Assembly: GCF_037042905.1 (NCBI RefSeq)
Contig: NC_087252.1
Location: 2,110,001-2,174,000, forward strand
From: Lytechinus pictus
Lineage: Eukaryota
Direction of reading: 5' to 3'
DNA length: 64,000 nucleotides
The notes beneath the pieces were generated by a model. The model was not told the origin of the DNA. It saw only the letters and a program-made list of their open reading frames with translations, and made no database searches. Within the stretch, counting starts at the first letter, position 1. The number at the start of each line of letters is the position of its first letter. A program made the translations under genes and the position numbers. Below are positions 644 through 63,593 of the stretch, in pieces.

Positions 644-898
644 GCCCTGTATCATTTTATGAACTTAGATCATTAATGTACAACGTGAATACACCTAGCC
701 TAGAGAAGCTAAGAAAAACAATTTGCAAGCTAGACATGCTAGAAGTCGATGCGACGAGTGCAGATAAATTCGGTCCACAACAAATCTACGACTCGCTGTG
801 TCAGTGGAAAGAGGGACACCCTCAGGTAGATCAAGGAAAGATATTACATGATGCACTTTTAAGAGCCAGACATGAGGAAGCATGGTGGAAAATTCTAG
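644..898 (+). CDS. Receptor gene copy 1, death-fold-like exon, type A (A1)
   Basis: tttccttgcag|GC...CTAG|gtaagt; 255 nt, phase 1-1; GPVSFYELRSLMY...LCQWKEGHPQVDQGKILHDALLRARHEEAWWKIL; close paralog at 63342. Confidence 0.85.
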
Positions 899-1190
899 GT
901 AAGTTAATCGTTCAACCTTTATATACATTTTTGTTTTTTTAATTAAATGTCCATATACCGGAATCTCACTTATCAAATATAACACACCGGATTAGTATAC
1001 TGCCATTTCATGTACAAACTCGACAACACAATTTTGACCGAAATTACTCCATCATCGGAGGTTTCATTACCAAAAATCCCACCACACCAATGAAAAATAA
1101 ATAAATGTACTATAATAAATTTAGAAACAGAAGGAACACAAAACAGGCAAATATAATGTAAATACAACAACATGTTCTATCGTATGATCT

Positions 1191-2575
1191 CAGGCGCGTA
1201 GCCAGGGGGGGCGCCCCCCAAAAAAAAACGTCCCCAAAAAGAAAAAAAAAGAAAGAAAAACAAGAGGGGAAAAGGAAAAGCGAAGGGAGGAAAGGGAAGA
1301 AAGGTAGCTTTGTGGGTTTTTTGTATTCTTTTTTTTTTTTTTTTCAAAAGAGAATCTCCTTTACTCTTGCTCTAAATTTATATATGAATTTTGCTTCCGC
1401 GCTGCGCGCGGTTAAATGACAATATTGCAGTTCTCCATTGTTTCCCCCACCTTTTCTCTAAACCTGTTTTTCCACTTCAGCTATATGTGTTTCTTGCCAG
1501 TTAAAGTTCAAATGTGTACATTAGGGCATGGAATTCGAGTAAGGTTAGGCCGAAGTATATGAAGTTACCTTTTTTTAATTCTTTTTTTTTATTGATCGCG
1601 CAACTTATGGTCAGGTCTGCTCCGGGCGGGTAAAATCTTTATATCAATTTCTGCCGTCGCCTCCATATAGGCAACTTCTCCCGCTTTTCAGCTCATTACT
1701 AAGCAATCATAATTTGGGGGGGGGGCAAACAGGTTCCTAATTTAAAAAGAGGAAGGTATAAATTCGTGTCGTATTAAATAAAAAAGTACAATATTTTTTT
1801 TTTCAAATTCTATTAAACTTCCGTGTCATTTCCCTGCACATTCATCTCCTGTTCTTTCTTGCGCACTCAGTTTGAAATTTTGAATGACACTTAAGTTTCG
1901 TTATCATTCAAAATGAAAGCGCTTCAGGATAAGTCAAAGAAATTATACATATCCATTTTAATATAATTTCAATAAATCACATGCAGAAGTTTCAACTTTT
2001 TGCGCACTATTTTCCTTGTAATGAAGTTCAATAATCTTAGAAAATCAATTGAATTAGAGCCGATGGGGTATTAGAGATATCTGCATTTGATGAAACGTCC
2101 ACCCTTTGAAATATCAGAGTTTCATTGCTCTACGCAAGGAGGAATATCTTCCTCCCGGCATATACACTTCTTCTCTGTTTTGCGAGTTAAAAATATGCAC
2201 TGTCGCTAAATTGTTTGTAATCGAATCTGATCTTTCCAAGGGAAGTATTCAATATATTTTAAAGAATGCCCTTTTCTCGGGACCCTTTTCTTTGTAAAAA
2301 AAATTGATAAAACGCTTTAGCTTCCGCGCTTCGCGCGGGGTTATTATTTTAATATCCTCCATTGTATTCCTTTTTCGTGCGTTCACAATGTTCAAAATCA
2401 CAATATAGTCAACTGAATTGGAGCTGATATAGGTACTAGAGACAAGAGAGACGGCTCCTTTTCATTTTAATTTATGAAACACCGAAAGCTTCGCGCTTCG
2501 CGCGCTCTGTAAGTGTTGGCACGCTTCGCGTGCATTTACCGCCCCCTCCAAAATTAAATCCTGGCTACACGGTAG
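1191..2575. mobile_element. TIR element (possibly hAT-like) in copy 1 only
   Basis: CAGGCGCGTAGCCAGG...CCTGGCTACACGGTAG; recurring cgcgcttcgcgcg palindromes; its flanks are contiguous at ~63900 in copy 2. Confidence 0.75.
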
Positions 2576-2760
2576 TATTATGTAGGTGCGATTTTAACGA
2601 ACGAAACATTGTAATTACGTTACGTTATAACAGCCCGTAGGCAGTAGACCTTCTATATAAAAAAAGGCTTATTACTTCCATACAATATGACAATCTACAT
2701 AAACATATATGTTGTTTTTAAAATAGTGAATTAATTTTATGATACATCTTTCCCTTTAAG

Positions 2761-3036
2761 AGCAAAGAAAGGACAAATCAAGTGTATGTGAAAGTATGTT
2801 CAAGAGAATACTCCGTGATATCGAAGACCCAGCAATGATACAGCAGCTCCTGCAAAAGCTAGCCCCAGACTTGGCAAAAGATGTGGGAACCTCACTGGAA
2901 ACAGATTTTATGGAAATAGCCTTGAAAGCACTGAAAGAATGTAATGAAAGTTCTCACAATGAAAATAGGATGATCTTGCTAAGCCGTGCCTTGGAGAAAG
3001 CTAAATGCAAGCCAATTGACAGGACTTTTCTCTCTG
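2761..3036 (+). CDS. Copy 1 death-fold-like exon, type B (B1)
   Basis: tttccctttaag|AG...TCTG|gtaaga; 276 nt, phase 1-1; MFKRILRDI...LLQKL...IALKALKEC...LLSRALEKAKC...TFLS; homologous to exons at 5968 and 62119. Confidence 0.85.
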
Positions 3037-3077
3037 GTAAGAGGTAGTGGATTTAATTCTCTTTCACCCATTTTATT

Positions 3078-3967
3078 GCTGTATCGCCTGCATTGCAGAT
3101 CGAGACTATAGGCGTCGCTTTTCCGACGGCGGCGGTGTCGTCAACATTGAAATCTTTATCTTAGGTTAAGTTTATGCAATGTCATCATAACTTAAAAGGT
3201 ATATGAACCTAGTTCATGAAACCTAGACATAAGAGTAATTAAGTATTACTAAACATCGTGCTTGGTTTTCAGGTCGCATGATCAAGATCAAAGGACATTT
3301 AGGGTCAATGAACCATAAATTACATTTTTCAATTTTTGGGGCATTAGATACATTACCAGAACTTTGAAAGTCACAAGTTATGGATGTAGTTAATGACGAT
3401 CGGTCATACATGTAAGAGTATTCCCCGAAAACCCTGTTCGAGTTTAAGGTCAGATGACCAAGGTCAAATGTTATATATGGTCAATAAAGTTAGATTATGT
3501 TGAGGAAATCAAAAACAAAACTTAACAAAGGTTTAGTTTTGAAACTTTGATAACTTTGAAAGTATAGTAGTTCCTGAAACTTAGGTATAATAATAATCAA
3601 GTATCAGCAAACACCCTAAAAGAGTTTCAGGTCACAAGATCAAGGGTCATTTGGGGTCAGTGAACTTAGACCATGTTGGGAAAACATCAAAATTGTAACC
3701 TAAGCTTAATTTTTGTAAATGTCTTAACTTAAGTTGTACAAACCTTCTTCATGAAACATTGACATAACTGTAATCAAGTACAATAAACATCCTGTCTAAA
3801 TCTTAAGTCTCATGGTCAAGATCAAAAGTTATTGAGGGTCAATAAACATAGTATTTCTATTACCATATGAATGGTGTTTTTTTTTAAATATATCGTTTCC
3901 GGAGTAAGCACTGCTTCTAAAGTAAATTCCTTATGCAGTCAAGACTGCCAAAGGTGTTCCACTTGTT
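3078..3967 (+). mobile_element. Probable Helentron/DINE-1-like non-autonomous element
   Basis: 5' tcgcctgc with a subterminal inverted partner gcagtcaagac near the 3' end; GGC microsatellite; internal ~160-bp tandem units; T-rich flanks; head fragment recurs at ~33157. Confidence 0.55.
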
Positions 3968-4204
3968 TTAATTAGGTAGGTCTTGTAGAGTTTAAATGAA
4001 TAATTTAGCGTAGTACATGTATATACGGGAGTTGTTTTTCTTGATGAATAGAATATCCTTATTCCACCTGGAGACGGACAAAAGATGAATATGAACATGT
4101 ATTATTCCATCAATTTCAAAGATTTGATATATATTTATAGATAAAAACTAAGATCTAAAATTGCTAATTCCTGCAAATTATATTGTCACTTTCTCTAAAA
4201 TCAG

Positions 4205-4453
4205 AAACAATGTCCTTTTTTGAGTTGTGGTCAGTGGGTCATTTCGACTTTGATGCTGGTGTGAAAACGTTACCATTACGTGACGCTTTGAAGGCGATGG
4301 GAATATTTGGTATAGAAGAGACAATTAGTCAGCATGAGCTTTATCATCTTCTTTGTAAATGGAAGGAAGAACACTCTAATTGCGACCAACGTCTGGTGTT
4401 CAAAGTTCATTTGCTTAACGAAGGACTTTACAAGGAATGGGAAAATCTCAGTG
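4205..4453 (+). CDS. Copy 1 death-fold-like exon, type A (A2)
   Basis: ctctaaaatcag|AA...AGTG|gtaagt; 249 nt, phase 1-1; MSFFELWSV...LLCKWKEEHSNCDQ...EW, aligning by eye with A1. Confidence 0.85.
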
Positions 4454-4733
4454 GTAAGTGATATGGATTTATTTCAATTCGAATAAAAAAAACACAAATA
4501 GTTTTTTAAAAACATTTTTTAAAAGGAATTTATTCTAATAACGGCATGCAGGAGGGTGGGGTTATGAAAGATAAGAAATTATAGGTGTAAAGTTAATTTT
4601 CCCACCACGCTTATCGTCGGTGCTCTAGTAATAGACGCCAGGTCTTAGTGGAATTTGCGTAACGCGCGAGTGTGTGTATGATGATTATGTGGAAGGTTCC
4701 ATGACAAAGACAGGCCACAATTTCTCCGTTCTA

Positions 4734-5697
4734 CAGTGCGTATCAAAAAAAGGTTATACTTTGAAAACGCCCTGGGAATTAAAAAATATACAACATGAGG
4801 ATATTTTTTTCACATATAATCTTGGGTTTGGGTCTCATCTATCCAATTAAATAAAAGTTTTGACAGAATGATACATTTGAGTGAGCAATGTCCATTTTTT
4901 GTAAAGCTCGCAGAAATATGTTTGCGCAGAAATGCTCGTTTTCACGCTGTGTCAAGGGAAAAGGGCGAAATCAAACTTACCCTGCGAAACATTTCTCATA
5001 CATTTCCCTTGCTTTTTTAGTCAATTGAAATAAAACGGATACATTCAAGCATTTTGTAACAATTTTCCCACCCAAATTGAAATTTCAACACTTAGTAAGC
5101 ACAACCTTTACCCTTTTTTGTGCCAGTTGGATCTGAGGACATAACTGAATCTGAAGAAAAGTTTATATCAGACATGACCAGCTTTTTTCACTAAGTTTTT
5201 ATCATCTTAAGTGAGACTACATTTTATTTTTAATTTAATACTTGTTTCTCCACACTTTTCCCAAGCTTTATAATGATTACCAAAGTGAAAATCAAGCCTA
5301 AGCCATTTCATGTAAATCACAGCTCAGTGTAAAGCAAATGTCGTCACGATGGCCTCGGTGTGTGGGGGAGTGGGGTGGGGCGCAATGCACTCTTCGAAGT
5401 GTTTTGGGCAAGGAAACAAGTTAAGACAATTTTACTAGCAAAATTCTACGTGTTCTTCATGATTAAGGTCTACTTTTATTCGCATATCTATTTCAAAGTT
5501 CTGCGCAAATCATTTTTCACTAACTTTTCAAAAGTCAATGGTGCTCACTCAAGCGGAAATATTTTTCGAAAGTTATATCGTCATTTGCTTATATCGATAT
5601 GTACCAATCTTAAAATGTGGAAAAACCTTAAGGATATTACAAATATATAATTTTACAGGATTTTTTTCTAAGTGTAAACTTTTTTTGATACGCACTG
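4734..5697. mobile_element. Tc1/mariner-type MITE
   Basis: TA|CAGTGCGTATCAAAAAAA...TTTTTTTGATACGCACTG|TA. Confidence 0.9.
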
Positions 5698-5967
5698 TAT
5701 ATTCCCCACACTAATCAAATGGCCAACTTCAATGTTTAACATTTTACCCTACCCTAACCGTAAACATACCATTAAACCATATTGCAACCCTAACCCAAAT
5801 TTTTTGACGAAATCAATTTGAAGCCTTGAGCAATTGTCGCATAAACAAATGTCATGTCACCGTGGGGAAAGGGGATATGCGGTACTACTTTTATAATTTG
5901 TGTCTATTCTGTAATTAAAATTGGTTGAAGACTTATGAATGACATGGACGCCCCCTCCTTATTTCAG

Positions 5968-6249
5968 ATCTGATGTTTGGAACAGACCGGATCATTTCTA
6001 ATGATACACTGGAACATATCTTGTGGCACTTGAAAACTCCAGGAAAGATCAACCATTTTCTTCATAAGCTGACCAATACCGACCAAGAACCAATACCTGA
6101 AGATTCAAATCTACCAGAGGGCATCGGAATTGCTCTGACTAGATTGGAGCTGTGGAAGAAGGGCCCCATTGATAAACATCCTGTGATTCTATTAAGCGAA
6201 GCGCTGGAGTCGGCAAAGTGCTCTCACGTTGCCATGACCTTCTTTCAAA
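5968..6249 (+). CDS. Copy 1 death-fold-like exon, type B (B2)
   Basis: ccttatttcag|AT...CAAA|gtaatt; 282 nt, phase 1-1; LEHILWHL...FLHKL...IALTRLELWKKGP...LLSEALESAKC...TFF. Confidence 0.85.
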
Positions 6250-6577
6250 GTAATTATATCAAAGAAAGAAGGTTCAGTCTTGTCTATTTATTCAAGCATG
6301 CATTGAGGACATCAGATATCTCATTTGCAAAAACAAGCAAACACAAAAAACGCCTACCGGAGGTGTGTTCCAAGAATATTACATATGAAAAAATTCAGAA
6401 AGTTAAATGAGCAACTAGACCAAAAGCTTCAGTCTCTGTTTTTGGTTGTTCAGCTGCGTTGCGCTTGTCTCTATATCGCTAATTGTTTTGTGCGTCCGTT
6501 CAGAACTTGTCGCTAGCATCGACTGGCCAGGGTATCGAAAATTTTAATCGGAAAACCTTGATAAAAGCCTAACTTAA

Positions 6578-9699: not shown

Positions 9700-9969
9700 T
9701 ACCAGTTTATCTCCAAAAGACTATTGGGGATGAAGAAGTAAGTGAATTCATCCGCAGACTTACGAGTAGGCATCGCAAGCGATTGGCAAACCAGACACCG
9801 GCCACTGAAGACAATAAAATATCCAACTTTGCAGAGGAAAATAATGACATGTTGTTTGATGCAAAATCTATGGTTCGAGACTGGATTGAAAGGGAGCAAT
9901 GCTGCAATTATGAGAAGAGATGTAATCTGGATGACATGTTGATCGAAATTGGTCGACATGATATGACAG
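9700..9969 (+). CDS. Copy 1 death-domain-like exon
   Basis: ccccctttag|TA...ACAG|gtaaat; 270 nt, phase 1-1; ...AKSMVRDWIERE...LDDMLIEIGRHDM fits the death-domain helix 4-6 pattern (MLxxW...LxxxLxxIGRxD). Confidence 0.8.
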
Positions 9970-10402
9970 GTAAATATCCGATCACAAATATTGTGATTGA
10001 CGTATCATATATGTATTTGTGTCACTTGAATAGTCTGTTCTTAAATGAGAAGGACTATCATTTCATTTAATAGTAGCTATTTCCCATCGCGATTGCACAA
10101 ATATTTATAAATATGTGAATTATCACATTTATGGATTTTAAATCTACCTCCTGTTAAGATTAAACTCTCACATTAAAGTAATCTACTTCCCCATAGTGCC
10201 ACATGCAGGTTATTTTATTGTACTGTATACTTCAAATTTGGGAACATAATCATCCTGATTTAAAAATGCACGTCAATAGCTTAGACACTAATAATAATGA
10301 TCATAATGATAACGATAATGATAATAATGATAATGAATAGTGATGATGCAAACGACGACGACAATGATAATTATAATGATAATAATATTTGAAATTATTA
10401 TA

Positions 10403-12836
10403 CGGTGCGCCCCCCCCAAAAAAAAAAAAAAAACTTAACACTCTGAAATGGTTGCCAGATAAAACAAAACCATTACTTTGAGGGAAAGACTTATATATCT
10501 GGAAAGCCAATAAAGTAAACTTTCAAATGACTCAAAACAAGTTGGAAATTTATTCATGTTTGAGTGAACACTGCCCACTTAATAAACCAGGGGCATGACA
10601 ATGAGGCTGGGCAGGAATTAACCTTCCAATTTCTTTCGGTTTTTTTTTGTTTGGAAATTGCAAAGTTGAGGGTTTCGTTAGGGATTAATATGGCACGCCT
10701 ATAGGGAATCAATTCAATATGTATTTCACTTTTTAAAAAAAATTTCTCTTCCACTAAACCATTTCACTCAAAGAAATTTATATTTCACTTTTAAAGATAT
10801 ATTCTACTTTATCAAAGAATGTATTTCACTTAAAAAAAAATGTTTCACTTTTCAAAAAATATGTTTCACTTTTCCAAAAAAAAAAATTCCCTTTTCCTAA
10901 TTAATTTTTCCAAAAAATATTCACTTTTAACAAAATATATATATCACTTTAAAAAAAATATATATTTCACTTTTCAAAAAATATATTTCACTTAAAAAAA
11001 ATATATATTTCATTTTTCAAAAAAATATATTTCACTTAAAAAAAAAAATAAAAAATTCACTTTTCAAAAATATATACTTCACTTTTCCCCCAAAATATGT
11101 TTCACTTTTGAAAAAAATATATTTCACTTTTCAAAAAAAAAAAAAATTTCGAGGAAGAATCATTTCACTTGTTACATTTTAATTTTGAGAGAAAACAAAT
11201 CCTTTCACTTTTGTTGGATAACACATGCGGCTGCCGTATTGGACCGTACGTAAAATTATTTTATCTATCCATCTATCTACCTACTTGATATATCTATCTA
11301 TCTCTATATATTTTGTTTGTGAAATATATATTGTTTGATTCCCTATAGGCGTGCCATAGACTAATGATAAACTGTGATCAGTTTGTTGCTTGAGAAATTT
11401 TCATGAGTTATCGAATTGAAATTTAATCAATGAGTACTCATGCTCATGAATTGCAATTTTTAGTGCAGCATTTCAACTTTATCATGTGGATCTCAGCAAT
11501 GTGTTCATGAAAGTCAGGAGAATAGGGGGTAAGATAGGATTTAAGTAGGTGAAGTACGTTGATGAGATAAAGGTCGACAGAACATTAAGCCACCCCTCCC
11601 TCCATCTCTACCCCTCCACTCCCCCCACACTTCTCTGCTTCTAAGAGACTAAGCTGGGCAGGAATTAGCCTTCCAATTTTTTGAGAGGTTAGTCCTTGGG
11701 AACTTGCAAAGCTAAGAGTGTTATGCTAAATTAATGAGTGAGGTAATTTTTGGTTTCTTAGGCAAATTTTATGAGTTACTAAATTGAAATTTAATGCATG
11801 ACTGAACAAGAATTTCAATTTTAATGTAGCATTTTACGTTTATCTTGTGGACCTCAGCAGTGTGTTCGTGAGAGTCAGAGTAATGTGATGGTTGTACGAG
11901 TTACAAACAAGAGGGCGATATATGGTAATAATTGGTTAAAAGGGCATTCCTTTTCTTTTTTGTTACAAATTACAAATCATATGTCCCCCCCCCCTCAACC
12001 TCCATTTCCCCGGCTCCCTCTCTCTTTGTCTTACATCCTGAAGACTATTCAAAACTTAACTGCCAAGTGACCAGTGGCTGATGGTCAGTTTTTTTCATTG
12101 AATGATTACCATGAAATTGACTGATTGTGATTATTTATGAAATCATTTATTGGAAAAAAAAAATTAATGTTTAATTGATCACATGGCGCATTGAAAGGTT
12201 TATTGATAAATTGTTGATTAAATGATTCAGAATTTATCATTAAATCAACTTTCTGTTCTGGACTTCATTCGTACATGTAATAGCAATCAGTCTCTCAACA
12301 GAAGGGGAGGGCGGGCGGGAGAGAGAGAGAGGGGGGGGGGGCTAAATGTTCTGCTGACCCTTATTTCATCAACCTACTTTCCCCACTTAAGTCCTATCTC
12401 ACCCCCTATTCTCCCGACTCCCATAAACACATTGCTGAGATCGACATGATAAAGTTTAAATGCTGCCCTAAAAAGTATAATTTGTGTTCACTCGCACTCA
12501 TGCATTAAAGTTCAATTTAATAATTCATGAAATTTGCTTAAACAACCAAAACTGGTCACAGTTGATCATGAATTCATCACAACACCCTGAACTTTGGAAG
12601 TTCCAAAGGATTTGCCTTTCAAAATCTGACAGAAATTGGAAGGCTAATTCCGGCCCAGCATAATTTCATACCCTTTGTTTTTAGCAGGCAGTGCTCGCTC
12701 AGGCATGAATAGTTTTCCAACTATTGGTGTCATTGAAAGTTGACTTTATTGGCTTTCATTATGTAGGTGTTTTCCCCAAAAGTGATATATTTTTTTACTT
12801 GGCAGCCATTTCAAAAGTTTTTTTTTGAACGCAATG
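10403..12836. mobile_element. Diverged copy of the same Tc1/mariner-type family
   Basis: TA|CGGTGCG...GAAATGGTTGCC and GGCAGCCATTTC...CGCAATG|TA; internal blocks shared with 40266-50737. Confidence 0.8.
10689..11358. mobile_element. TIR MITE with an internal ~22-bp minisatellite, nested in the 10403 element
   Basis: 24-bp TIR TATGGCACGCCTATAGGGAATCAA; flanks GATTAA/GACTAA; repeated atatttcacttttcaaaaa units. Confidence 0.85.
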
Positions 12837-14199
12837 TATATTTTAATAGAGTGCAACTATTTGTACATATTTTATTGCGCAGCAAGAGTCCCTTATATGT
12901 TATACATAATACCAGAATAAATAGGTTTTTAATTTAGAGTGCATGGAGAATATATCGTCCTAGTCAGGTAGATATGATCGAAATTTCGACATGACCGTCA
13001 AATTGGGTATACATGCAATATTTTTGCTCAGAGTTGTAGTATAGGGTGTATTCTTCAAGAAGCCCACTTGGGGAATTTTTTATATTGACGTCATAAGCCA
13101 CGCCCACTTTTTGGCACAATTTTCTCAATTGTGATTTTTTTTATTTTACATAGTAAACATATCATGTTTGATATCAATTAAATCTTATGACAAATCAAAT
13201 ATAAATATATGATTTATATGGCATTTTGGCCATGTACAGGTCATTTAAATGTCATTTTAAGGTCATAAAAGGACAAATTATGACAAAAAAGGTTATACAT
13301 TATAATAGGGAGACTGTCATGTTCTGAAAGCTTACATAAAGAATATTATTTTTTGTTTTGCTGACGCTTGTAGTCGAGATTGTGTATATTAAAAATCTGA
13401 CAGTTGCCATCTAGGCACTCTGAGGATAGTGTCTTTATTCACATCATAAGCCACGCCCATTTTTTCATATTTCTCTTAATTGCGGCTTTTCTGTTTTACA
13501 GAATAAACATTTGTTTGATTTTGAATTAAATCTTAAGAAAATTAAAAACTAAATACATAAATCTTATGGCATTTAAGACTCGTCAATGTCATTTAAAGGT
13601 CATTACAGGTCGTGAAAGGTCAAATTTGGTCTCAAAAAGTTTTTCACATATTGCAGAACATCTCGTGTTTTAAATACAAAAAAATGAAATATTATATACA
13701 TTGTTACTGAAAGTTGTAGTCGAGGGTGTGTATATTAAGAATTTGATGTGTACTACCTTGTCATCCATGGGCAGTTTTTCATATTTTCTTATTTTAGGAA
13801 CCCTAACCCCAATCCTAACCACTTTTCGCATAGGCATATGTCAAAATTTATACGGAATGCGACATACCGGTATATGAATGAATGAATCTTTATTTCGTTT
13901 CAATTCCGATATTAAACAGCATCAACAGTAAATCATTGCAGTGCAAGTAAATAGCACAGAACAAAATTGAATAATTACAGAATAATATACATAATACATG
14001 CGCTACTTTTTATGGAACATTAGCAACACCCATGAGACAAGATGGAAACAAAACCTGGTGACCTACTTAGAAGATTAGCTTGTGATATGATATGATGTAC
14101 ATGTAACATGGAATAAACATGATCATGTTTGATATCAAATTAGATCTACTGAAAATCATAAATCATACTACTATACAAGATTAGGCATTATGGCATAGG

Positions 14200-15460
14200 A
14201 GGTGTTGCATATAACTGGTTTCAAAACCACCTTTCTGATCGCAAACAATTTACTTTTTAAAAATAATATTAAATCTAATACTGTATTTTGCCAATAACAT
14301 ATGGTGTCCCGCAAGGAAATGTACAATGTCATTTGTTGTTTTTAATTTATGTTAATGACATTATTTATTCCTCTAAAATATCAAAATTTGTACTGTATGC
14401 AGATGATACTAATACTATATTGTCACATTAAAATGAACTAGAATTGATTAAATTAGCTAACAGTGAACTTTTGCCCGTTGCAAATTGGCTTAAAGCAAAT
14501 AATCTGATGATTAACATCAATAAAACCAATTATGTAATATTCCGTTCATTAAAAAACATTTGTCTCCAACTACGCAGTTAATATTGATAATACTGAAATC
14601 GAAAATTTTCACAGCATAAACTTTTCAGTTGTAATAATCGACGAAAGACTAAATTTGGCAGAACATGTTAATAATATCGATGGGAAAATAGGTATGTACA
14701 TAGGTATCATGCGCAAAATTCGTCATTTTATACCTTTAAAAGCCTTATTCATGTTATACGATGCCTTCATCTTGCCGTATTTAAGTCATTGGGGAATAGT
14801 TTGTTCAGGTACTAATTAAAAAACATTAATCGTTAATTTGTTTTGCAAAAGGAAGCAATTCGACTGTGCAGAAAACTCGCATTACCTTGCTTACACTACT
14901 ATTCTTTTAAAAACCTTAAATACATTAAAGCTGTCTGATTTGATTAACCTGAAATTGGTAATCTTTATGTATTCTCATTTTAACGGCTCACTACCTCCTA
15001 TTTTAGATGAGTTATTTTCTAATAGTAAATTCAAGCACTCATTTAATACACGTAATAAGAATAACGCTATCTTGCCACATTGTCGTATAAATCTCACTCA
15101 GCGTAACTCCATCATCTTTAAATGTACTAAGTTATGGAATGCTCGTACATCTGAAATAGAAAAAATACATTGACAATATGCTTTTATATCTAAATATAGA
15201 AAATTTATCATATATGCATATAACAAAACCTATACAAACATGTGTGAGTGTGTGTGTCTGTCTTTTGTTTGTAGTCTGGTTGTAATTGGCCTATTGTAGA
15301 TCGGATTGTTATTTGAAGTTATTGATTTACCATGTCATAATTATGTAAGGGGATCACTGTTTAGCAAGCCATATGCTTTTGTTGTGATTCCCATACACAT
15401 TTCATTGTGTATATATCTGCTTTGCACTTTATGACTTATAAATAAATTAAATTGAAATTG
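14200..15460 (+). pseudogene. Degenerate 5'-truncated LINE reverse transcriptase fragment
   Basis: YGVPQG at ~14299 and LYADDT at ~14393; many stops; ORF 14838-15173 resembles an RT C-terminus; AATAAA plus (attgaa)n tail. Confidence 0.8.
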
Positions 15461-17689
15461 AAAAAATTCAAAAGTACACACATACACGAATCTCATGGCA
15501 TTTAAGAACTGTCCAGGTCAGTTAAAGGGCATTTAAAGTTATGAAAGGTCGAATTCGGTCACAAATGTAAGTCTTTACATAATGCAGAATTATCGTCTTA
15601 GAATACAAACATGTCAAGCATTTGTACTGAAAGTTGTAGGTTGGGGTGTGTGTATATTAAGAATATTTTGGGTGCTACCTTGTCATTCATGAGTTTTTGT
15701 TTTAAATATATTTTCTTCCTTTATGAACCCCAACCACTTTTCACACAGGCATACATGTATATCTAAATTTGGATGGAATATGACATGTAATATGGAATAA
15801 AGGTAGTGAAAATTATAATACAAATAATATGGATCATCATATATTAAAACGTTTGCAGTAATTTCTAGGTAATTTAAGCTCTTTAACTCTTTAAATGCCG
15901 TTGGCAGCTATGCGTGCCCTTAGCCCTCTAATGCCATTGGCACGTATGCGTGCCCAGATAACTTTATTTTTTTAAACCAATTTTACAGCCAGAAAATCAA
16001 CACCATATTCTCTGTTTTTTATGTTGTTATACTGGCCAGGAATTCACAATTCATTTTATCATATAAAAAATAGTGGTTTACATAGACATTTTTTGAGTAA
16101 AATTGTATTTTTGCATCATTATTTTCAAGAGTTGATTTCGGATATTGCTGCGATCTGAATCAAGATTTCCCCTATTGACACGTGTGATATAACGGTTGTG
16201 TGTAGCAATACACGTACTTCTATGGGCAGAGCAAAGGCGAATGTGCGAAGACATTCAGCTCGGAATTGACCAATGACCGAGCGGTACGATGTTCCTCACC
16301 CAACACTACTCGCCCATTCGCTATTGTTACATGAATATTCATGAGCTATCGATCAGGTCTTTTGCAGGCCTGTATGGTAGTATTCTTGTGTCAAGGCTTT
16401 TTTCTGCCTGCAAATGTGCACGGTTTGGGGATTTTTTTTTTTTGGGGGGGGGGGGCGGGGGAAAGGTCTTATACATTGTTTTTAGCATTGTCACAAAATT
16501 GTTCTCGTTATAAATATATTAGTAAAGAAGCCTGTCATTTCCAACTCTCGTCTGCGCACTGCAATCATCACACTCATTATTTATTTATTCATTTATTATT
16601 GTTATTAATATTATCATTATTAGTATTAGTTGAGAACACCAATGATTGATGCAATTTAATGTGTATAATTCTACATGTTTGTTACGTAACATTTATATTT
16701 ATATTTTATTTCTGATTGTAAGCGCTGTGATACTTTTTGTGTATAAATAACCATTATTATTATTATTATTATTATAATTATTATTATCATTATTGTTATT
16801 GTTATTGTTATTATAATTATTATTATCATTATTCTTCTCTTTCACCTTCTTTTTAGTATAAAAGGGATGGTCCCGGCTGAAAGTATTTATAGTTTTATAT
16901 ACAAAGCAGAATTCACTGAGCAAAATACCGAAATTTTCATCAAAATCGGATAACAAATAACAAAGTTATTGAATTTCAAAGTTTAGTAATATTTTGTGAA
17001 AACAGTCATAAATATTATAATTATATATTATGTCATAAAATGATTGTAATCATATCAATTTCATTTCCGCTGCAGCCAAACTCTCTCTTCATAAACTTAA
17101 GATCAGGTAAATAATGGTTCATATTCGTTTGTGTTTTTATAGCCCATACCATTATAAAAAAGAATTATTGATATTGTTACGCTTATTAATATCATATTCA
17201 AACTTCTCACAAAAATATTAATTGTTCAATTTTCTCCTCGAATAAAATAGGACGAAGAAAAAAGAGAGTGATAATTAACCCTTTGCGTGCGGGCCCGCGA
17301 ATCCCGATACCTCTCCCTGCGGCGGAGCCGTTTTGGTACATTGCTGGTATTTGGATCTGTGGCGGTGTTTTCCGAATCAATTGCTAATTGCGCCAAACTA
17401 AAGTATTTTCAGGATTTTTAGTAAATGTAAATATGAAAGAGCAGACATTTTTTTCTTTCTAGAAACAAAGGTATTGCTTCTCAAATCAACAGAATAGTTA
17501 AGAAATTTACGAGGAAAAAGTCGTGTTATTTTGTAAAATCTTCGCTTTTCCCCAAGTCATGATGACCGTTTTGATAGATTTAATTGTGACATACTTAATT
17601 TTTGAGAATAGGACCTCCCGCCTTCGGCACATATACGTTGGAATTATGGAATTCATAAATGGCTCATTATAACCATATTCACTTTATAC

Positions 17690-19020
17690 TCCCTTTATGC
17701 CAGCAAAAAGATGATGGGTAAATTCCCCTACACGCTGAGCTCTTATGTCAAATGTGATATCATTATACTACTAAATGAAAAAAATGAATCAAGCAAATTT
17801 GATAACAACACCAAATAATGTACCAAGTTTGGTGGAAAAAATAAGCATCAAATTTGCATCGGTTACGGAAGAAACCTAAATATTATTTTGATCATCAACA
17901 AAATATATGATGTCAATGTGGCAAGGGCGAAATAAAAAGTATGATGTGTGTAACGAAGAAAAAAAAGAGAAAATGGGAGTGAGCGAATCAAGCGAGTAAA
18001 CGCACTTTTCATGATCTTTTATTTACATAATTCTGTGAATGTCATGCATTTTCCGTAATGCTTTTTTTATTCTTCCTCATTTGTTTTATTAGCGAGAAAT
18101 AATTTATATCAATCAATGCATAATTTCTTCCGATGTTCCGCTTTCTTTTGTTTCTCCCTTTTTGCCAGCAAAACGATGATGGGTAAATTCCCCTACACGC
18201 TGAGCTCATATGTCAAATCTGATATCATATACTACTAAATGAAAAAAAAAATGGATCAAGAAAATTTGATAACAACACCAAATTACGTACCAATTTTGGT
18301 GGAAAAAATAAGCATCAAATTTGCATCAGTTACGGAAAGAAACCTAAATATTATTTTGATATTCAACAAAATATATGATGTCAATGTCTAAATTACAGGG
18401 ATTTAAAATAAGTCTAGATGGATTGTAGTTAGGGACCAATCGATTTCTGGATTTTGTTTTAATCCTAAAGACTTAAATTTAAATCTCAAATGATTTAAAT
18501 TCAAATTAAATTTAAATCTTTCGAGATTTAAAAAAGGAATCTGAAGGATTCAATTAAATCCGGAATTCGATTGGTCCCTAACTACAGTCCATGTGGACTA
18601 ATTTTAAATCCCTGTAATTTAGAGTGATGGCAAGGGCGAAATAAAAAGTATGATGTGTGTAAGGAAGAAAAACAAGAGAAAATGGGAGTGAGCGAATCAA
18701 GCGAGTAAACGCACTTTTCATGATCTTTTCACTTTTCATAATTCTGTGAATGTCAATTCTGTGAATTCTGTGAATGTCATGCATTTTCCGTAATGCTTTT
18801 TTTATTCTTCCTCATTTGTTTTATTAGCGAGAAATAATTTATATCAATCAATGCATAATTTCTTCCGATGTTCCGCTTTCTTTTGTTTCTCCCTTTTTGC
18901 CAGCAAAAAGATAATGGGTATATTCCCCTACACGCTGAGCTCATATGGCAAATCTGGAAGCATAAACTGGATTACTACTAAATGGAAAAAAATATATATA
19001 TATCAAGCAAATTTAATAAT
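17690..19020 (+). repeat. Local tandem duplication, ~460-bp unit, about 2.3 copies
   Basis: gccagcaaaa.gat.atgggta.attcccctacacgctgagctc at ~17699, ~18163 and ~18899. Confidence 0.85.
18387..18623. mobile_element. Small palindromic MITE
   Basis: ~55-bp TIR TCTAAATTACAGGGATTTAAAAT...GTTAGGGACCAATCGA; interrupts one unit of a local tandem duplication. Confidence 0.8.
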
Positions 19021-23070: not shown

Positions 23071-23307
23071 ATCTTGTGACGATCTTCGACGATGACTTAG
23101 TCCAGTTACGGATGCTAATGGCTTGCCTCGACGAACAAATGATGGAAGAATTCTGCAAGAAAGTAGACATACCTTTAGATGTAGTAGGACCAAACAAGCA
23201 GAGACCAGACAATATCGATCTTCGACGATGGAGAGACAATCACTTACAGTATACAGTGAAAGTCGTCTTCTCAGAAATAACTGGATTCATGACGAATAAA
23301 ACTAAAG
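23071..23307 (+). CDS. Copy 1 death-domain-like exon (3' boundary uncertain, 23307 or 23328)
   Basis: attattatag|AT; DLVTIFDDDLVQLRMLM...LRRWRD...; phase-1 donors at 23308 (gtatcg) or 23329 (gtggtt, which would keep an IGRTEL motif). Confidence 0.7.
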
Positions 23308-24694: not shown

Positions 24695-24937
24695 CTACAC
24701 ACAGCTTATTGGCTGACGAGCGGGATGGAGAGTCTCAACCTAAGTTTGAGCGATTACATTCACAAGAAGGACATGAAGGAGCAGTCGCCGAAACAGCAGG
24801 TTCTCACAAAGAATCGCAGGAGGAAGATACATCATCGGATGCTCTGCTGCAACAGCTCAAGTTATGGAGAAACAACCATAAAGAGAAGAAATGTCGAAAA
24901 TCATTGAGATCAGCTTTGAAGCATGTAGGGCTAGAAG
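24695..24937 (+). CDS. Copy 1 exon, acidic linker plus C-terminal half of a death-like module
   Basis: phase-1 acceptor aag at 24692-24694 is weak; ...ALLQQLKLWRNN...LRSALKHVGLE G|gtaaaa. Confidence 0.65.
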
Positions 24938-25430: not shown

Positions 25431-25721
25431 AATGCATCGTAAACAAGACGCCACGGGAAAAGGTGTATGAAGTAGAGATTGTACGAGCAGCCTTTCACAT
25501 ATTGATGAGGGACGTTTACCCCGTCATAGAAGAACTGGGCATTGACCGGAAGACGATCCCGAAGTACATGAGACAGTGTCCTGTTATAGGCAAAGGATCG
25601 TTGGATCTTCTGTTTAAGATCTGCGAAGGGAAGGACAAATCGAAAAGCTACAATCGTCTTGATTTCTGTGTAAAGCTCACAAATATGGGTTATGTCGATG
25701 TTGCAAGATCTATATATTTAG
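25431..25721 (+). CDS. Copy 1 death-domain-like exon
   Basis: atcccaatag|AA...TTAG|gtacga; 291 nt, phase 1-1; ...VIEELGIDRKTI...SLDLLFK...KLTNMGYVDVARSI (LGI and LxxxGxxDVA motifs). Confidence 0.8.
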
Positions 25722-26544: not shown

Positions 26545-26814
26545 ATCACGAGATGAGTATAAGTGAGTTAGCTAGTATTGCCTCCGTACTGCACAGACGG
26601 GACCAAGCAAAGTTTGAGCCTCTTATTCATAAATTGGATTTGAGACCTGATGAACTTCCAGAAGATCATGGAGCACAGTTTGAGACATACTGTTTAGAAG
26701 TGCTAAGGACTTGGAAGGAGAAGATCAGACCCGTTCCGTACCACTACAGACGTCACATCGTTGAGGGTCTCCAAGCAGTTGAATGTTCTGATCTTGCTGA
26801 TGAAGTTCTGACAG
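26545..26814 (+). CDS. Copy 1 death-domain-like exon
   Basis: aataaag|AT...ACAG|gtagtc; 270 nt, phase 1-1; MSISELASIASVL...CLEVLRTWKEK...IVEGLQAVECSDLADEV, the most canonical death-domain pattern of the set. Confidence 0.85.
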
Positions 26815-27656: not shown

Positions 27657-27952
27657 GCCTTTATCGACATGAATATCCCGACGAAGATGTCATTGAAGAT
27701 ATCTGCAGTAGACTTGATGACGGTCAAATACGGAATCTTCTTCGAATCCTGAAACTTAAGCCTGATCATGATGAACAAGATCGGAAAAAAATAAACAAAA
27801 TGATTGTACGCTGGGCGGACAAGTGGATGAGAAAGTATGATTCCTCGGCTATATCATTTAAAGAGAGAAGATCAGTGAACGATGAGCTTGTTAGAGCAGG
27901 GTTTTATGAGTTAGCCCATGAAATCATGGTACTAGAATATTCCAAGTTCTAA
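27657..27952 (+). CDS. Copy 1 terminal coding exon, death-domain-like
   Basis: cctactttcaaag|GC; VIEDICSRL...LLRILKL...KMIVRW...ELVRAGFYELAHEI...EYSKF then TAA; AATAAA at 28236. Confidence 0.8.
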
Positions 27953-34856: not shown

Positions 34857-34956
34857 ATGGCTAACTACAAGACAGGTACAGCTATACAAATGGCGGTCAA
34901 ACGAATACACCTCTCTCTGTGGATCATATCTGCTTTTGTTATCTACTTCTCTTTAG
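34857..34956 (+). CDS. Receptor gene copy 2, signal-peptide exon
   Basis: ATG 34857; MANYKTGTAIQMAVKRIHLSLWIISAFVIYFSL G|gtatgt; phase 1; joins the 50878 exon to give ...YFSLGIRG-DVP, a plausible cleavage site. Confidence 0.7.
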
Positions 34957-42779: not shown

Positions 42780-42780
42780 A

Positions 42781-42798
42781 TGGTGTCAGGAGTGGGAT
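42781..42798 (+). promoter_or_regulatory. Primer-binding site complementary to a tRNA-Leu 3' end
   Basis: TGGTGTCAGGAGTGGGAT just after the 5' LTR; reverse complement ATCCCACTCCTGACACCA matches the metazoan tRNA-Leu(CAG)-type 3' end. Confidence 0.85.
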
Positions 42799-43013
42799 CA
42801 CCGGTTTGAGATTGATGCAACCCCCTACTACGTCAGAGGACTCCAGCAGGTCAAGAGGATAAGAAGACACTATTAGATATAGGTTATTTTAAGGTTAGAA
42901 GGTAATCTGGTTAAAATAGTCGAAAGAAGTTAAGAAATTATAATTGTATTTTGTAAGAAGTTGTGTTGTTTTCAAAATTGTCATAGATTTCTTTCCCCAA
43001 ATAAACCAGCAGG

Positions 43014-48020: not shown

Positions 48021-48292
48021 ATTTCACTTTTTCTTCTGTCATTTTTCTTTCCATAATGTTGGATATTTACATTTTTCATTTTGGAGATATCAAAACTACT
48101 CAGATGAGAATTTTTGATTGAAGTTTAGGTATAGATTGAAATATTTCATAATAGGAGCATATTGAATAATTTATATGGTAAAAATGCAATTTTTGTAAAA
48201 ATTGTAATGTTTATTTAAAGAATTGAAAAATAATTCTAGGAGAATGAATATTATCAATAATATTGAGAAAATGTTATTTCGTCAGGATGGAT

Positions 48293-50877: not shown

Positions 50878-51225
50878 GGATACGTGGTGATGTCCCTGAT
50901 GATACTGTCTACACCGAGTTGCACAAAGATGTTAATATAGGAGACAGTGCAGTCTTGACATGTCAGTTTCGAGGTTCACCAATGGCTGTGTACTGGAAGA
51001 AAGGCGATGACCCAAGAAGGGCGCCAAACCTTGTATCATGGATTCCTACTGATGACGTCACTGGTAAATGTGAAGGTCAAAGGCCATGTGAGGTCATGGA
51101 GATGAATGAGAACCGTTCCTTGATCATCAAAGAAGTCAGTATGGCCGAACAAGGTCGATATATCTGCAGAGTTTCTAACTACAAGGGGTATCTAATACAC
51201 AACTTCACATACATCAGACTATTTT
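50878..51225 (+). CDS. Copy 2 IgV-like immunoglobulin domain exon
   Basis: tgtgtcatttag|GG...TTTT|gtaagt; 348 nt, phase 1-1; GDSAVLTC...VYW...SLIIKEVSMAEQGRYICRV (B-strand Cys, C-strand Trp, E-x-G-x-Y-x-C). Confidence 0.9.
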
Positions 51226-51906: not shown

Positions 51907-52305
51907 CTCCTCCTATAGAACCATACCCAATCATCAACCAGTGTCAGAGAAAGGAAGGTTCAATAAATTCTACTTCTCCTCCAAAGGGTTGCAGGATTTC
52001 AACCGACACGATTGTAAACATCACATGCTCAGTCTTTGGATTCTACCCGGATATCAACCTGTTCTTCCTTCATGGGTCTTCAAAGGTAACCAATTTTAAG
52101 AGTAATGAGTGGGAAAATAAAGACGGTTCTAAGAACAAAACCATATTAATTGAAGCTAGAGTCAGTGACCGGCCATACGTATGTATTGCGTCAGATATAC
52201 CTGGTTCAACAGAGGAGAGAGCCTGGGAGATATTCATAGATGAGACAACCTCAGCCAATCCCGAGAAAGGTGATGGAAGTAGCGTCACAAATCCCGTAAA
52301 GATTG
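51907..52305 (+). CDS. Copy 2 second Ig domain exon with C1-like motifs
   Basis: atatgtag|CT...ATTG|gtaagc; 399 nt, phase 1-1; hand translation gives VNITCSVFGFYPDINL...ENKDGSKN...YVCIAS; absent from the ORF track in this frame. Confidence 0.85.
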
Positions 52306-57577: not shown

Positions 57578-57670
57578 TGGTACCAATCCTACTGATACTG
57601 GCTGTCGCCACGACAGGCATGGCATTCTTGAGACTGAGATCAAGGAAACGGCAGGCCAGACGTTACAAAG
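57578..57670 (+). CDS. Copy 2 transmembrane exon
   Basis: tattttcacacag|TG...AAAG|gttagc; 93 nt, phase 1-1; (KI)VVPILLILAVATTGMAFL followed by basic stop-transfer RLRSRKRQARRYK. Confidence 0.85.
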
Positions 57671-58195: not shown

Positions 58196-58252
58196 TAGGT
58201 AAACGTGATGTCGAGGAGTCAAAGCAATTGGTGCAAGAAATGAATGTACAAG
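58196..58252 (+). CDS. Copy 2 short juxtamembrane cytoplasmic exon
   Basis: gtgtatag|TA (or tag|GT at 58199)...CAAG|gtaagt; phase 1-1; GKRDVEESKQLVQEMNVQ. Confidence 0.65.
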
Positions 58253-58828: not shown

Positions 58829-61800
58829 GGGTTGTCTCTTTTTACCACCTATGGCTACTGGCTTATGGCACTCCAAATGACAAGATGACAAAGGTGTGTG
58901 CTGCCCTCAAAGAGCTTAGTAGTAATAGTCCAGGATAGGCCCCATAGACAAGGGGTCGAACCTTGTTTTTTTAGATATACAATGTTTTTTTATGGTTTCT
59001 TGTCAATTCGAGGGTGCTGATTCCGAATCTGAATGATGCCACTCTTGTAACCTTGAGCATTTTCCGCAAATTGGCAAAATCCAATATGGCCGCCAAAATA
59101 TGCAAATTACCCATGAAAATCATAAAATTGCCAACACATTAGCTATAAAATGCATGTAGTTGTTGTGCAGAAGTGAAATACCAATATGAAAAGCGATATT
59201 TGACAAAATATTTATTTTATTGATATTCAAAATGGCCGCCATAACCCCTGTATACTTTATTATGTAGAATATGAATGGGGAAAATATTTGTTTCAAACAA
59301 GAGCACTATTATTGCATGTGATTGTGACCTGCGAGTGGACTACTGTCTGAAAACATGACTATTAACAAAACTATGTCATTTGTATACTATCTAATGTGAT
59401 AAATGCTGTATTATGATATTCAAAATGGCTGTCATAGACCCCTTATACTGTGTACAATATATAAAAGGGGACAAATAATTTTCACAACCTTTGAATTTGT
59501 TTGACTTTAAAATGCCAATAACTGCGAAATATTGGTGTAACACTGTCTGACAACAAGGATTTCTAACGAAACATATAATTTCCCTTGCAATTTCGGTAAT
59601 TATGCTGCATGTTGACATTCAAAATGGCTGCCATAGGCCCTATCTGTATTATGAACAAAGCGAATGGAGAAACCAATTTTCACAAGAGTAAAAACATTAA
59701 AATGAATGTAATTGTAATCTATACGAGTGAAATATTGTCTAAACACATGATTTCTGGCGAAACATATCATTTCATTTTTCATGCATGAGATAAATGCTGT
59801 ATTGTAAAATTCAAAATGGCCCCTAAGGGCCCTTACAGTATTATCTACAATGTAAATGGGGACAAATACTTTTGAAAGAATTAGGATTTGCCTGACTATG
59901 AAATCCATATAATTCTGTGCTCATTGCCTGACGAAGTCTAGCAGCTTGCAGACGAAACGTCGCTTTCACACTACGTTTGCTACATCGTGAGACAACTGGT
60001 TAATTTCTTCTACTCAAGGAAAATATTGTTTGAAAACGTGATTTTTTTAATGAAATATAATATTTCCTCTCCCATAGGTGATAAATACTGTATTTTGACT
60101 TTCAAAACGGCCGCACAAGCCCCTACAAATTCTGTAATATGCGTATAGGGAAACTAATCATCACCAGAATGAGAACCAAAAACGCACGTAACTATGTGAT
60201 GTATAGGTAAAATTTGGTCTTGAACATGATTTCTGACTAAATACATCACATAATGGTTGAGAAGGTAATGAAATTCAAAATTGCTGCCATAGCCCAAAGT
60301 AGTATGTACATTGTAACTGGGGACAGATAATTTTGACAAAATTTTTACTATGAAAATGGCTTAATTTTGATGTAAGTGTTAAGTATTGTCTAAACCCAAT
60401 GATTTCTAACGAAATATATGATAGCTTGTGTCATAAAGGTGATGAATGCAGCCTTTTAAAAATGAAAAATGGCCGCCATAGTCCCTTATCTTAATATGTA
60501 AAATTTGAATGGGGAAAGATAATTTCCACAAAGAAACATATTGCAGCCATTTTGAAATTTAAATATAGCATTTATCACCTAAATAACATAAGAAATGATC
60601 TATTTGGTTACAAAATCATATTTTCAGACGATATTTCACTCATACATGCAACACCAGTTAGTCAAGCAAAGCCAAATTCTGTTAAAATTATATGTTCCCA
60701 TTCACAAAGTACATAATAGGCCTACCGTTAGGGCCTGTAGCGGCCAGTTTGACTTTCAAAATACATTATTTATCACCTACCTGGCAGAATGAATGGTATA
60801 TCTTGTTAGGAATTATGTTTTCAGACAATATTTTACTCTTAAATCACAATTATATGCATGTTATGGTGCTGACTCATGTGAAAATTGGTTTCCCAGATCG
60901 ATTGTACATAATACAGTCAATGTCTTTTGGCGGCCATTTTGAAAGTCAAAATACAATATTTAACACAAATATGAAACCCGAATAATATATTTCGTTGCAA
61001 ATTATATTTGAAGACAGTATTCCACTAATTTACCACAAAAAAATACGTTTTAGTGCTCACCTTGTAATTGTTTTTGTCCTCTCTCACATCGTAGATCATA
61101 ATTTTAGGGCCTTTGGCGGTCATATTAAATATCAAAATACAGGGTTTATCACGTACATGGCATGTTAAATAATAAATTTCGTTAACAATAATGTTTTTAG
61201 TCAGTATTCCACTCGTTTATCTCAACAAAATGCATTTTAGTGCTCACTCTTGTGATTTTTTTGTGTCACCATTCACATTGTACATAATAGTGTTAGGGCT
61301 TTTGAAGGCCATTTTGAATATCAAAATACAGGATTTATCACATAACTGACATAACAAATGATATATATCGTTAGCAATCATGTTTACAGACATTGCTTCA
61401 CTCATAGATCATAATTACTTGCATTTCAGTGCTAAATTTTGTAAAAATTAATTTTCCCCATTCATATTGTACAGGGGTCTATATGATGGCGGCCATTTTG
61501 ATATCAAGAAAATAAATATTTTGACAAAAATCATTTTTTCAGATATTATTTCACTCCGGCAGCACAATTGCATGTACTTTAAAGCCAATGTGTGGACAAT
61601 TTTATGATTTTCATGGGTAATTTGAATATTTTGGCGGCCATATTGGATTTTGCCAATTTGCAGAAAATGCTCAAGGTTACACGAGTGGCATCATTCAGAT
61701 TCGGAATCAGCACCCTCGAATTGACAAGAAACCATAAAAAAACATTGTATATATAAAAAAACAAGGTTCGACCCCTTCTATCCTGGACTATAAGGACGCC

Positions 61801-61939
61801 GGGGAACAAATAGAAAGAAGTCGTGTGTACGATGTTCTGTGTAAATGGAAAAATAAATCTTACGCACCCGACCAACCACAGATGTTGAGAATTGCGTTGG
61901 AGGTCGTGAACCTTGAGAGTAGATGGCAAGAGATCTGTG
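58829..61939 (+). pseudogene. Copy 2 first death-fold-like exon (type A0), split by a DNA transposon; coding parts 58829-58925 and 61794-61939
   Basis: attaacag|GG; GVVSFYHLWLLAY...LKELSS / KDAGEQ...VYDVLCKWKNK...DQPQMLRIALE...WQEIC G|gtaagt; removing 58926-61793 restores an 81-codon in-frame exon; as it stands, TAG at 58936. Confidence 0.85.
58926..61790. mobile_element. Foldback-type non-autonomous DNA transposon, TAG...CTA termini, 3-bp TAA TSD
   Basis: TAA|TAGTCCAGGATAG...CTATCCTGGACTA|TAA; >300-bp TIRs; interior of ~180-bp units that switch orientation near 60500. Confidence 0.92.
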
Positions 61940-62118: not shown

Positions 62119-62559
62119 ACCAAGTACGTCAGGTCAATGATTCTACCAAAGTACCTGAGGGAATATTCGAACAAATCCTGCTTGACTTAAAAGGCAAAAA
62201 AGCAATTAAAAAATTCCTTAAAAACTTGGTTCAACACGAAAACAAAGATATAGAAACTGAGACAATCAATGACACCCATGACGGTGAAGAGGAAAAGGAA
62301 GAGTCTGCAAGTAAAGGGGATAACATGGACATGGACAAGTCAGCTCCCGTCAAAGAAATCAGAAATGATTGTAAAGGGAACAAGGAAAACTCAGCTCCCG
62401 CCAATGTCATTCAGACAACTGAAGGTACAGCCTACATGGAAGCCATGCGAAATTTGAAGGAATGGAATAAAGGCCCTTTCAAACACAATCCGTTTGTTCT
62501 AGTTAGTCTAGCCCTCGAAAAAGCAGGGTATCACCATATCTCAAAGACCTTCTTTGACG
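62119..62559 (+). CDS. Copy 2 death-fold-like exon, type B (B0), with a long charged insertion
   Basis: tacaaatcag|AC...GACG|gtgagt; 441 nt, phase 1-1; IFEQILLDL...FLKNL [insert] AMRNLKEWNKGP...LVSLALEKAG...TFFD. Confidence 0.85.
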
Positions 62560-63341: not shown

Positions 63342-63593
63342 GTACTGTATCATTTTATGAGCTTAGATCATTAATGTACAACGTAAATACACCTAGCCTA
63401 GAAAAGTTAAGAAAAGCAATCCGCGAGCTAGAAATCGATGCGACGAGTGCAGGTAAATTCAATCCACAACAAATCTACGACTCGCTGTGTCAGTGGAAAG
63501 AGGGACACCCCCAGGTAGATCAAGGAAATATATTACATGATGAACTTTTAAGAGCCGGGCATGAGGAAGCATGGTTGGAAATCCTACTTTCAT
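63342..63593 (+). CDS. Copy 2 exon A1, paralog of 644-898; 3' boundary uncertain
   Basis: cccctgcag|GT; long identical peptide stretches with copy 1; canonical donor missing, weak phase-1 gtacca at 63594, otherwise stop at 63616. Confidence 0.75.

Follow-up and report, generated by a model that had tools for sequence, protein, structure and literature searches.

The stretch of Lytechinus pictus DNA analysed here, called the window below (64,000 nucleotides; NCBI RefSeq assembly GCF_037042905.1, contig NC_087252.1, positions 2,110,001 to 2,174,000, forward strand), carries tail exons of the gene LOC135154838 (copy 1) and part of a second tandem gene copy. Positions 644-6249 are the exons A2-B2-A3-B3 of LOC135154838, a receptor with two immunoglobulin (Ig) domains and a transmembrane segment (TM) in the order Ig-Ig-TM, and exon 644 is a 100% match to its L. 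pictus RefSeq model (P0001, XP_063959098, 1249 residues). The gene is a member of a putative, unannotated urchin family of single-pass receptors, with a signal peptide, two Ig domains, a TM and a chain of predicted death folds encoded one per phase 1-1 exon. The interpretation favoured here, to which a probability of roughly 0.55 is given as a whole, is that of a clustered death-fold-chain receptor whose (A-B)3 tail arose by crossing-over and would act as an adaptor-seeding scaffold. The ten exons of copy 1, all open and in phase, are the following.

644..898, + strand: exon A2, putative death-fold module of type A, phase 1-1 (100% match to P0001 774-857)
2761..3036, + strand: exon B2, putative death-fold-like module of type B, phase 1-1 (P0001 859-949)
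4205..4453, + strand: exon A3 (its end joined to B3 in contigs of run X24)
5968..6249, + strand: exon B3 (splice from A3 in contigs of run X24)
9700..9969, + strand: exon C1, of all modules the nearest to Pfam Death (E 0.001, short of the cut-off)
23071..23307, + strand: exon C2 (link to C1 inferred from homologues, not from reads)
24695..24937, + strand: exon C3 (from homologues)
25431..25721, + strand: exon C4 (from homologues)
26545..26814, + strand: exon C5 (from homologues)
27657..27952, + strand: exon C6, terminal, stop codon included (from homologues)

The A and B exons lie where a preliminary description, made from the sequence letters, had placed them; their coordinates, splice ends, phase and open frames were confirmed, A2, B2, A3, B3 and the B1 exon of the second copy each being bounded by AG and GT, a multiple of three in length, of phase 1-1 and free of stop codons. 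The joining of A3 to B3 at GT..AG was found in two contigs of run X24, with 73 letters on the short side; X24, a run of unrecorded kind, is the sole source of this read support, runs X1, X3 and X5 having covered repeats only. Downstream, the further tail exons of copy 1 start at 9700, 23071, 24695, 25431, 26545 and 27657, a stop codon closing the last of them. The L. pictus paralogues LOC135154841 and LOC135154842 present A1-B1-A2-B2-A3-B3 after Ig-Ig-TM, and a word-indexed search with the A2-B3 region matched only the three L. pictus paralogues among 4969 candidates. Two observations speak against a tail that runs on to C6: the RefSeq model of LOC135154838 reads through the C1 donor and stops there, and the linker of about 25 residues found between C1 and C2 in several relatives has no match within the window. 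Contigs of run X24 also extend beyond the C1 donor into the intron, so that the tail may also occur in a shorter version that ends at C1. The C1-C2 intron spans 13 kb (9970-23070). The RefSeq models of LOC135154841/842 read through the B3 donor, with a final stretch homologous to the intron start at 6250-6302, and represent either truncated tails or incomplete models.

The tail modules named A and B form two distinct classes. In shuffle tests on copy 1, with all twelve modules included (A1 and B1 from RefSeq model P0001), Z scores ranged from 9.6 to 18.4 among A modules and from 10.6 to 18.7 among B modules, and were at most 4.1 between A and B. A leave-out profile test assigned 70/70 modules to their own class (own minimum 31.5 bits, other maximum 16.4), a result that speaks for separation and not for completeness since the module set had been retrieved with the A-B profile. 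When the C modules were included in a joint tree, B formed one starred clade (95/98) and A and B were split in 200/200 bootstrap trees, as the preliminary description had anticipated; A was unresolved as a clade relative to the C modules. Comparison of the two profiles relates A to B with 84% probability, above the best of 30 column shuffles. The W/C/Y positions of the core vary little or not at all, and the alignments show a W-x-x-I/L helix at the end of A and P-x-DRTFF at the end of B. The idea that the tail modules as a whole are recent copies within one family was rejected, the C modules having little likeness to A, to B or to each other, with A-C3 and C2-C3 as the exceptions.

A profile search with the A-B pair through 1.84 billion representatives retrieved 43 proteins, of which 40 contain A or B modules; the module counts exclude P0041, which has canonical Death repeats, P0042 and P0043, and the four repeats of P0041 were used as an outside Death profile. 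Twenty relatives were looked up, and all 13 for which an organism name was obtained are sea urchin proteins, from L. pictus, L. variegatus, Strongylocentrotus purpuratus and Diadema antillarum. Another L. pictus gene, LOC135155674 (P0011), encodes TM-A-B-C1-C2-C3-C4-C5-C6, and in the S. purpuratus models P0051, P0050 and P0008, and likewise in P0007, a single A-B is followed by part or all of the C series. The presence of the same C series in single-cassette relatives indicates, by homology, that C1-C6 belong to the same tail, and the eight-module relatives identify A-B-C1..C6 as the common form, to which the twelve-module L. pictus tail adds two A-B blocks. An L. variegatus model reads A-B-A, the Diadema proteins read TM-A-B-B-A-B-A-B-C1 (P0004) and B-A-B (P0019), and the number of A-B copies ranges from 1 to 3 among the relatives. 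In the model P0050 the tail of one member is continued by the Ig-Ig-TM of the following one, suggesting that the genes are clustered in tandem in S. purpuratus too.

The order of the modules was examined in 19 multi-domain proteins, after removal of fragments of a single exon, of two near-duplicates and of three unrelated hits; the proteins are partly non-independent and some of the models plainly incomplete. They contain 25 A modules, three of which end the model; the remaining 22 are followed by B, called by the hidden Markov model (HMM) in 21 instances (one a short fragment) and judged B-like by eye in one. A was followed by another A or by C1 in 0/22 of these informative cases. The strict alternation previously described holds as A1 B1 A2 B2 A3 B3 in three RefSeq models, whereas the series on which it had been based was drawn from two gene copies, copy 1 supplying A2-B3 and C1-C6 and copy 2 supplying A1-B1-A2.

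B is less strict in its position, and this weighs against a fixed pair: it follows another B in P0004, C1 in P0006 (partial) and a linker in P0034, and the Diadema A-B-B arrangement demonstrates that B can duplicate by itself. Such cases, which include a B without its A in the last two proteins, favour the alternative that A-B is a duplication unit only, its crossovers falling in the surrounding introns and its folds acting singly or packing continuously along the chain. The tolerance of B1 for insertions of ~60 to 260 residues is in keeping with it, as are the shortness of both the A-B and the B-A junctions and the lack of correlated A and B distances among deep lineages. This alternative is weakened by the count of 0/22 A-A or A-C1 junctions, given that any phase 1-1 exon could duplicate singly, and by the multiplication of A-B, probably in two lineages, while C1-C6 are single in the proteins examined. 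It is a possible explanation, to which clearly less than even odds are given.

Regarding their fold, both A and B look like divergent death-domain-like modules in predicted structures and profile comparisons, B being the weaker case. AlphaFold2, run on A2-B2 with three sequences, predicted six plus six helices joined by a six-residue linker (mean predicted local distance difference test score, pLDDT, 78.7; predicted template modelling score, pTM, 0.76). Residues 1-88 of this model (A) match the death domain (DD) of FADD, and residues 89-176 (B) match the caspase recruitment domain (CARD) of BinCARD and the MyD88 DD. In a wide structural search the closest matches of A were the FADD DD (Z 8.4, root-mean-square deviation, rmsd, 3.1, 82 aligned), the PIDD DD (Z 8.3) and, tied with the latter, a death effector domain (DED) of vFLIP; RIPK1 and Fas DD chains were matched as well. 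In a second model A matched the PIDD DD (Z 9.1, rmsd 2.1, 79 aligned). The matches of B in the first model were BinCARD CARD (Z 6.4) and MyD88 DD (Z 6.2), and both models gave each module six helices. Death folds dominated the match lists of A; of the best 50 structural rows for the first model, all but a few large assemblies are death-fold entries, judged by their titles or by content already known. At the profile level, A and B matched the canonical Death repeats with probabilities of 61% and 65%, in both cases exceeding the best of 30 column shuffles.

Several results count against the assignment to the death fold. The structural Z scores fall in a range that the tool deems common for helical bundles, so that weight is placed on the uniformity of the match list and on the profile matches. 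For B, the top 50 rows of the second model contain no death-fold entry, and the Atlas feature search gave no death-domain match. None of the sequences reached the 22.6-bit cut-off of Pfam Death (PF00531), C1 alone scoring 19.6 and whole proteins 18.7-20.1, and weak matches to this family were found for 3/14 A rows and 0/11 B rows. Searches of solved-structure sequences with the pair, A and B profiles returned no death fold, their hits all having E values of 0.06 or worse, and with Foldseek neither model had a match at E 0.001 or better.

As to the packing of A on B, the preliminary description had proposed the pair as the functional unit and its modelling as a check. A B-A control, built from L. 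variegatus with two Diadema rows, reached a pLDDT of 73.6 and a pTM of 0.64, a fairly confident model that agrees with the view of A-B as a duplication unit only; the higher pTM of A-B goes the other way and points towards packing of A on B. The gap is modest and the control was not sequence-matched to A-B, which, with only 2/5 of the A-B models above pLDDT 70, reduces the force of this comparison. What held of the proposed heterotypic unit is that A is succeeded by B wherever a module follows; an obligate rigid pair was not borne out, given the Diadema B-B arrangement and the B-A model, and the B-B occurrence makes obligate pairing less likely than preferred pairing. The odds that A-B is a preferred structural pair are about even. 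The A-B repeat itself is real; that its two modules work as a locked pair is weakly supported.

Death folds are known to assemble into helices by way of three interfaces, of types I, II and III, and in tandem DEDs (tDED) and tandem CARDs (tCARD) two folds form a rigid pair, by type I and type II contact, respectively (PMC11874512). Urchin A-B resembles tDED (caspase-8, cFLIP, vFLIP MC159) and tCARD (RIG-I, MDA5) in joining two unlike death folds by a short linker, in conserved order, with one partner having an irregular third helix. The known tandems differ in being N-terminal, cytosolic and present once per chain (PMC11874512); A-B instead forms part of the tail of a receptor, where up to three copies of it precede six further modules, and its sequence looks DD-like. 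In tDED, an RxDL motif is located at helix 6. This motif was not found in the A or B alignments.

A literal reading of that likeness would have A-B recruit caspase-8, FADD DED or MAVS-type partners. It draws on the vFLIP DED, whose match to A equals those of the best DDs (Z 8.3, rmsd 2.4, 75 aligned), on the presence of cFLIP/caspase-8 tDED chains in the weak top rows of Foldseek, and on the third helix of B, short or disrupted as in DED1. Nevertheless, the alignments of tDED and tCARD chains cover only one half of the predicted model (~70-80 residues; 78 residues at Z 5.5 for the RIG-I tCARD), whole-pair template modelling scores (TM-scores) are ~0.3 with an rmsd of 16-18 A, the inter-domain angle being itself a prediction, and the sequence leads favour Death. 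The predicted pair superposes on neither tandem as a whole, so that the tandem DED or CARD resemblance suggested by the preliminary description does not extend to the entire pair. Membership of A-B in tDED or tCARD is not supported by the models, and this reading is considered very unlikely.

The history of the cassettes was approached through trees. A1, A2 and A3, and likewise B1, B2 and B3, each cluster by position across the L. pictus paralogues together with fragments at some distance, which suggests that the three-cassette state predates the gene cluster. The three cassettes are 24-34% identical to one another, no nearer than to single-cassette genes, and form an open polytomy in which cassette 1 joins an L. 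variegatus pair at 93/91. In the approximately unbiased test, a single clade of the three was neither rejected nor recovered (p-AU 0.074, or 0.167 with the L. variegatus pair). The four pairs of Diadema form a separate group (89/92), and position-by-position orthology between Lytechinus and Diadema was rejected for cassette 1 (p-AU 0.027) and cassette 2 (0.030); the favoured view is that A-B probably multiplied independently in Diadema, with the caveat of long branches. It is weakened by cassette 3, for which Diadema orthology was not rejected (p-AU 0.165), and by the length of the Diadema branches. A and B distances were correlated over 13 pairs (r 0.50, p 0.002), a signal that was lost (r -0.19) when Diadema and one close pair were removed.

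Of the triplication proposed in the preliminary description, the two extra cassettes over the eight-module relatives were borne out; duplication within the gene was not, the trees being unable to separate it from the recruitment of cassettes from tandem paralogues. According to this second possibility, which is compatible with the mechanism favoured here, the cassettes were gathered from diverged paralogues of the cluster by unequal crossing-over. The low mutual identity, the open polytomy and the affinity of cassette 1 for the L. variegatus pair agree with it, as do the recombination between heads and tails in the family and the lack of intron similarity among the cassettes in a self-comparison of the window. 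Since the single clade was not rejected, and an old in-gene triplication followed by saturation would give the same star, recruitment is regarded as a serious contender that falls somewhat short of even odds.

The heads and tails of these receptors have different histories. The comparison covered P0001-P0003, P0007, P0008, P0029, P0032, P0050 and the window exon 50878-51225. The first Ig of LOC135154841/842 and of copy 2 shares 75-82% of its residues with S. purpuratus-type heads, against 48-50% with that of LOC135154838, whereas the first A module is 84-86% identical between LOC135154838 and LOC135154841/842 and 26-32% identical between Lytechinus and Strongylocentrotus. A single clade of the four L. 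pictus Ig heads was rejected (p-AU 0.005). Heads common across species and tails common within a species indicate that tails have been swapped or homogenised between receptors, and we infer from these sequences that the three-cassette tail moved between older head types. The phase-1 introns found throughout the gene would allow such transfer.

The second tandem gene copy starts at 34857 and continues beyond the end of the window. Its exons are as follows.

34857..34956, + strand: first coding exon, signal-peptide-like (homologue of the LOC135154841/842 N-terminus)
50878..51225, + strand: first Ig exon, V/I-set (Pfam Ig_3, E 6e-10)
51907..52305, + strand: second Ig-like exon, C-type-like, and stalk (Pfam C1-set, E 0.1, weak; 87% to P0003)
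57578..57670, + strand: transmembrane exon with basic stop-transfer stretch (from the sequence)
58199..58252, + strand: juxtamembrane exon (from the sequence)
58829..61939, + strand: exon A1, with a 2865-bp element inserted at 58926-61790
62119..62559, + strand: exon B1, a low-complexity insertion separating the two halves of the fold
63342..63586, + strand: exon A2, strong donor degraded; weak phase-1 GT sites only, at 63594 and 63600

The exons at 644 and 63342 had been equated in the preliminary description, and they are the same exon in two tandem copies, with 91% nucleotide identity and 81-83% in the flanking intron. A reading of the window as one gene continued across its ends was rejected, 31-1189 and 62718-63902 being tandem copies of 73% identity. 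The positions 58829 and 61794 belong to a single A exon split by the 2865-bp inverted-repeat element; this element (58926-61790) is non-coding, ends in inverted repeats of 13 bp without mismatch, has long inverted arms that match imperfectly, and is flanked by TAA repeats. The split A1 and the degraded strong donor of A2 indicate that copy 2 is probably a pseudogene or a damaged allele. In B1 of the window (62119-62559) and of P0001-P0003, the expected site of the third helix is occupied by a low-complexity, internally repeated insertion of ~60 to 260 residues, depending on the paralogue. Intron 1 of copy 2 houses a young Gypsy-like long terminal repeat (LTR) element (41178-49896) with two 1606-bp repeats that are 99.6% identical and an open frame of 1671 codons on the minus strand (43005-48020), its class being judged by eye from motifs. 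The intron between the second Ig and TM exons contains a frameshifted element resembling a long interspersed nuclear element (LINE) at 52464-55817, with frames that appear by eye endonuclease-like and reverse-transcriptase-like.

Known receptors offer partial parallels. Like Fas, TNFR1 and p75NTR, the urchin proteins are predicted to be single-pass with cytoplasmic death folds, a hydrophobic segment being followed by basic residues and then by the modules. They differ from the TNF-receptor (TNFR) death receptors by an Ig ectodomain (in three full-length members) in place of a cysteine-rich one, and by 8-12 folds instead of one. UNC5 receptors are organised as Ig-Ig-TSP-TSP-TM-ZU5-UPA-DD; the likeness consists in two Ig domains outside and a death domain inside, and the UNC5H2 DD is a structural match with Z 6.8-7.8. 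Unlike UNC5, the urchin receptor has many death folds, and full-length P0001-P0003 gave no Pfam match to thrombospondin, ZU5 or UPA at E up to 1. Membership in either group thus fails on features of ectodomain and tail; in its predicted working the protein resembles a death receptor into which a multimer of death folds has been built. The S. purpuratus survey of Hibino et al. 2006 reportedly includes V-C1-TM Ig genes in multigene clusters, which likewise have an ectodomain of V-type and C-type Ig domains; to our knowledge, no death-fold tail forms part of that description. A literature search, with subscription papers and supplements outside its coverage, found no description of the receptor family.

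Known death receptors have one death domain each, and clustering is needed to seed the signalling helix. It is proposed that unequal crossing-over among the phase-1 introns of the tandem cluster copied A-B and also transferred the tail between different Ig heads. Ligand binding would cluster the receptor, whose covalent chain of death folds may then serve as a multivalent scaffold on which cytosolic death-domain adaptors begin to assemble into helices, with inflammatory or cell-death signalling as the putative output. A and B would probably pack on each other across the six-residue linker, in which case extra cassettes would raise the valency of adaptor binding. The most likely role is that of a predicted multivalent death-fold scaffold on a receptor of innate-immune type, the putative immune role being suggested by the Ig ectodomain, the tandem clustering, the rapid change of the tail and the death folds. 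A bolder and doubtful extension is that A-B might constitute a third kind of rigid tandem death fold, a tandem DD whose geometry differs from both tDED and tCARD, and the tail a pre-built, covalent stretch of death-domain helix whose length, at one to three A-B units, would set the signalling threshold; on this view urchins would have multiplied the unit on two or more occasions and would exchange whole tails between diverse Ig heads, as a mix-and-match family of immune receptors. The tail might instead be a decoy or sink, its divergent folds sequestering adaptors or pathogen effectors and damping signalling. Fast divergence of the tail (first A at 26-32% against first Ig at 75-82% between Lytechinus and Strongylocentrotus) and the poor fit to canonical profiles would agree with a decoy; the ten open, in-phase exons of copy 1 and the conserved W/C/Y core are compatible with either role, and a decoy is considered unlikely.

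Should A-B prove flexible, the finding would shrink to ordinary exon duplication in an uncharacterised family. Receptors with eight to twelve death folds in a single chain, and their natural variants with 1, 2 or 3 A-B copies, would provide a ready-made series for relating valency to the threshold of death-fold assembly. Most of the modules are invisible to Pfam, so that current counts of death-domain receptors in echinoderms are probably too low. Finally, the combination of old heads with species-specific tails suggests exon-level swapping as a route by which immune receptors may diversify.

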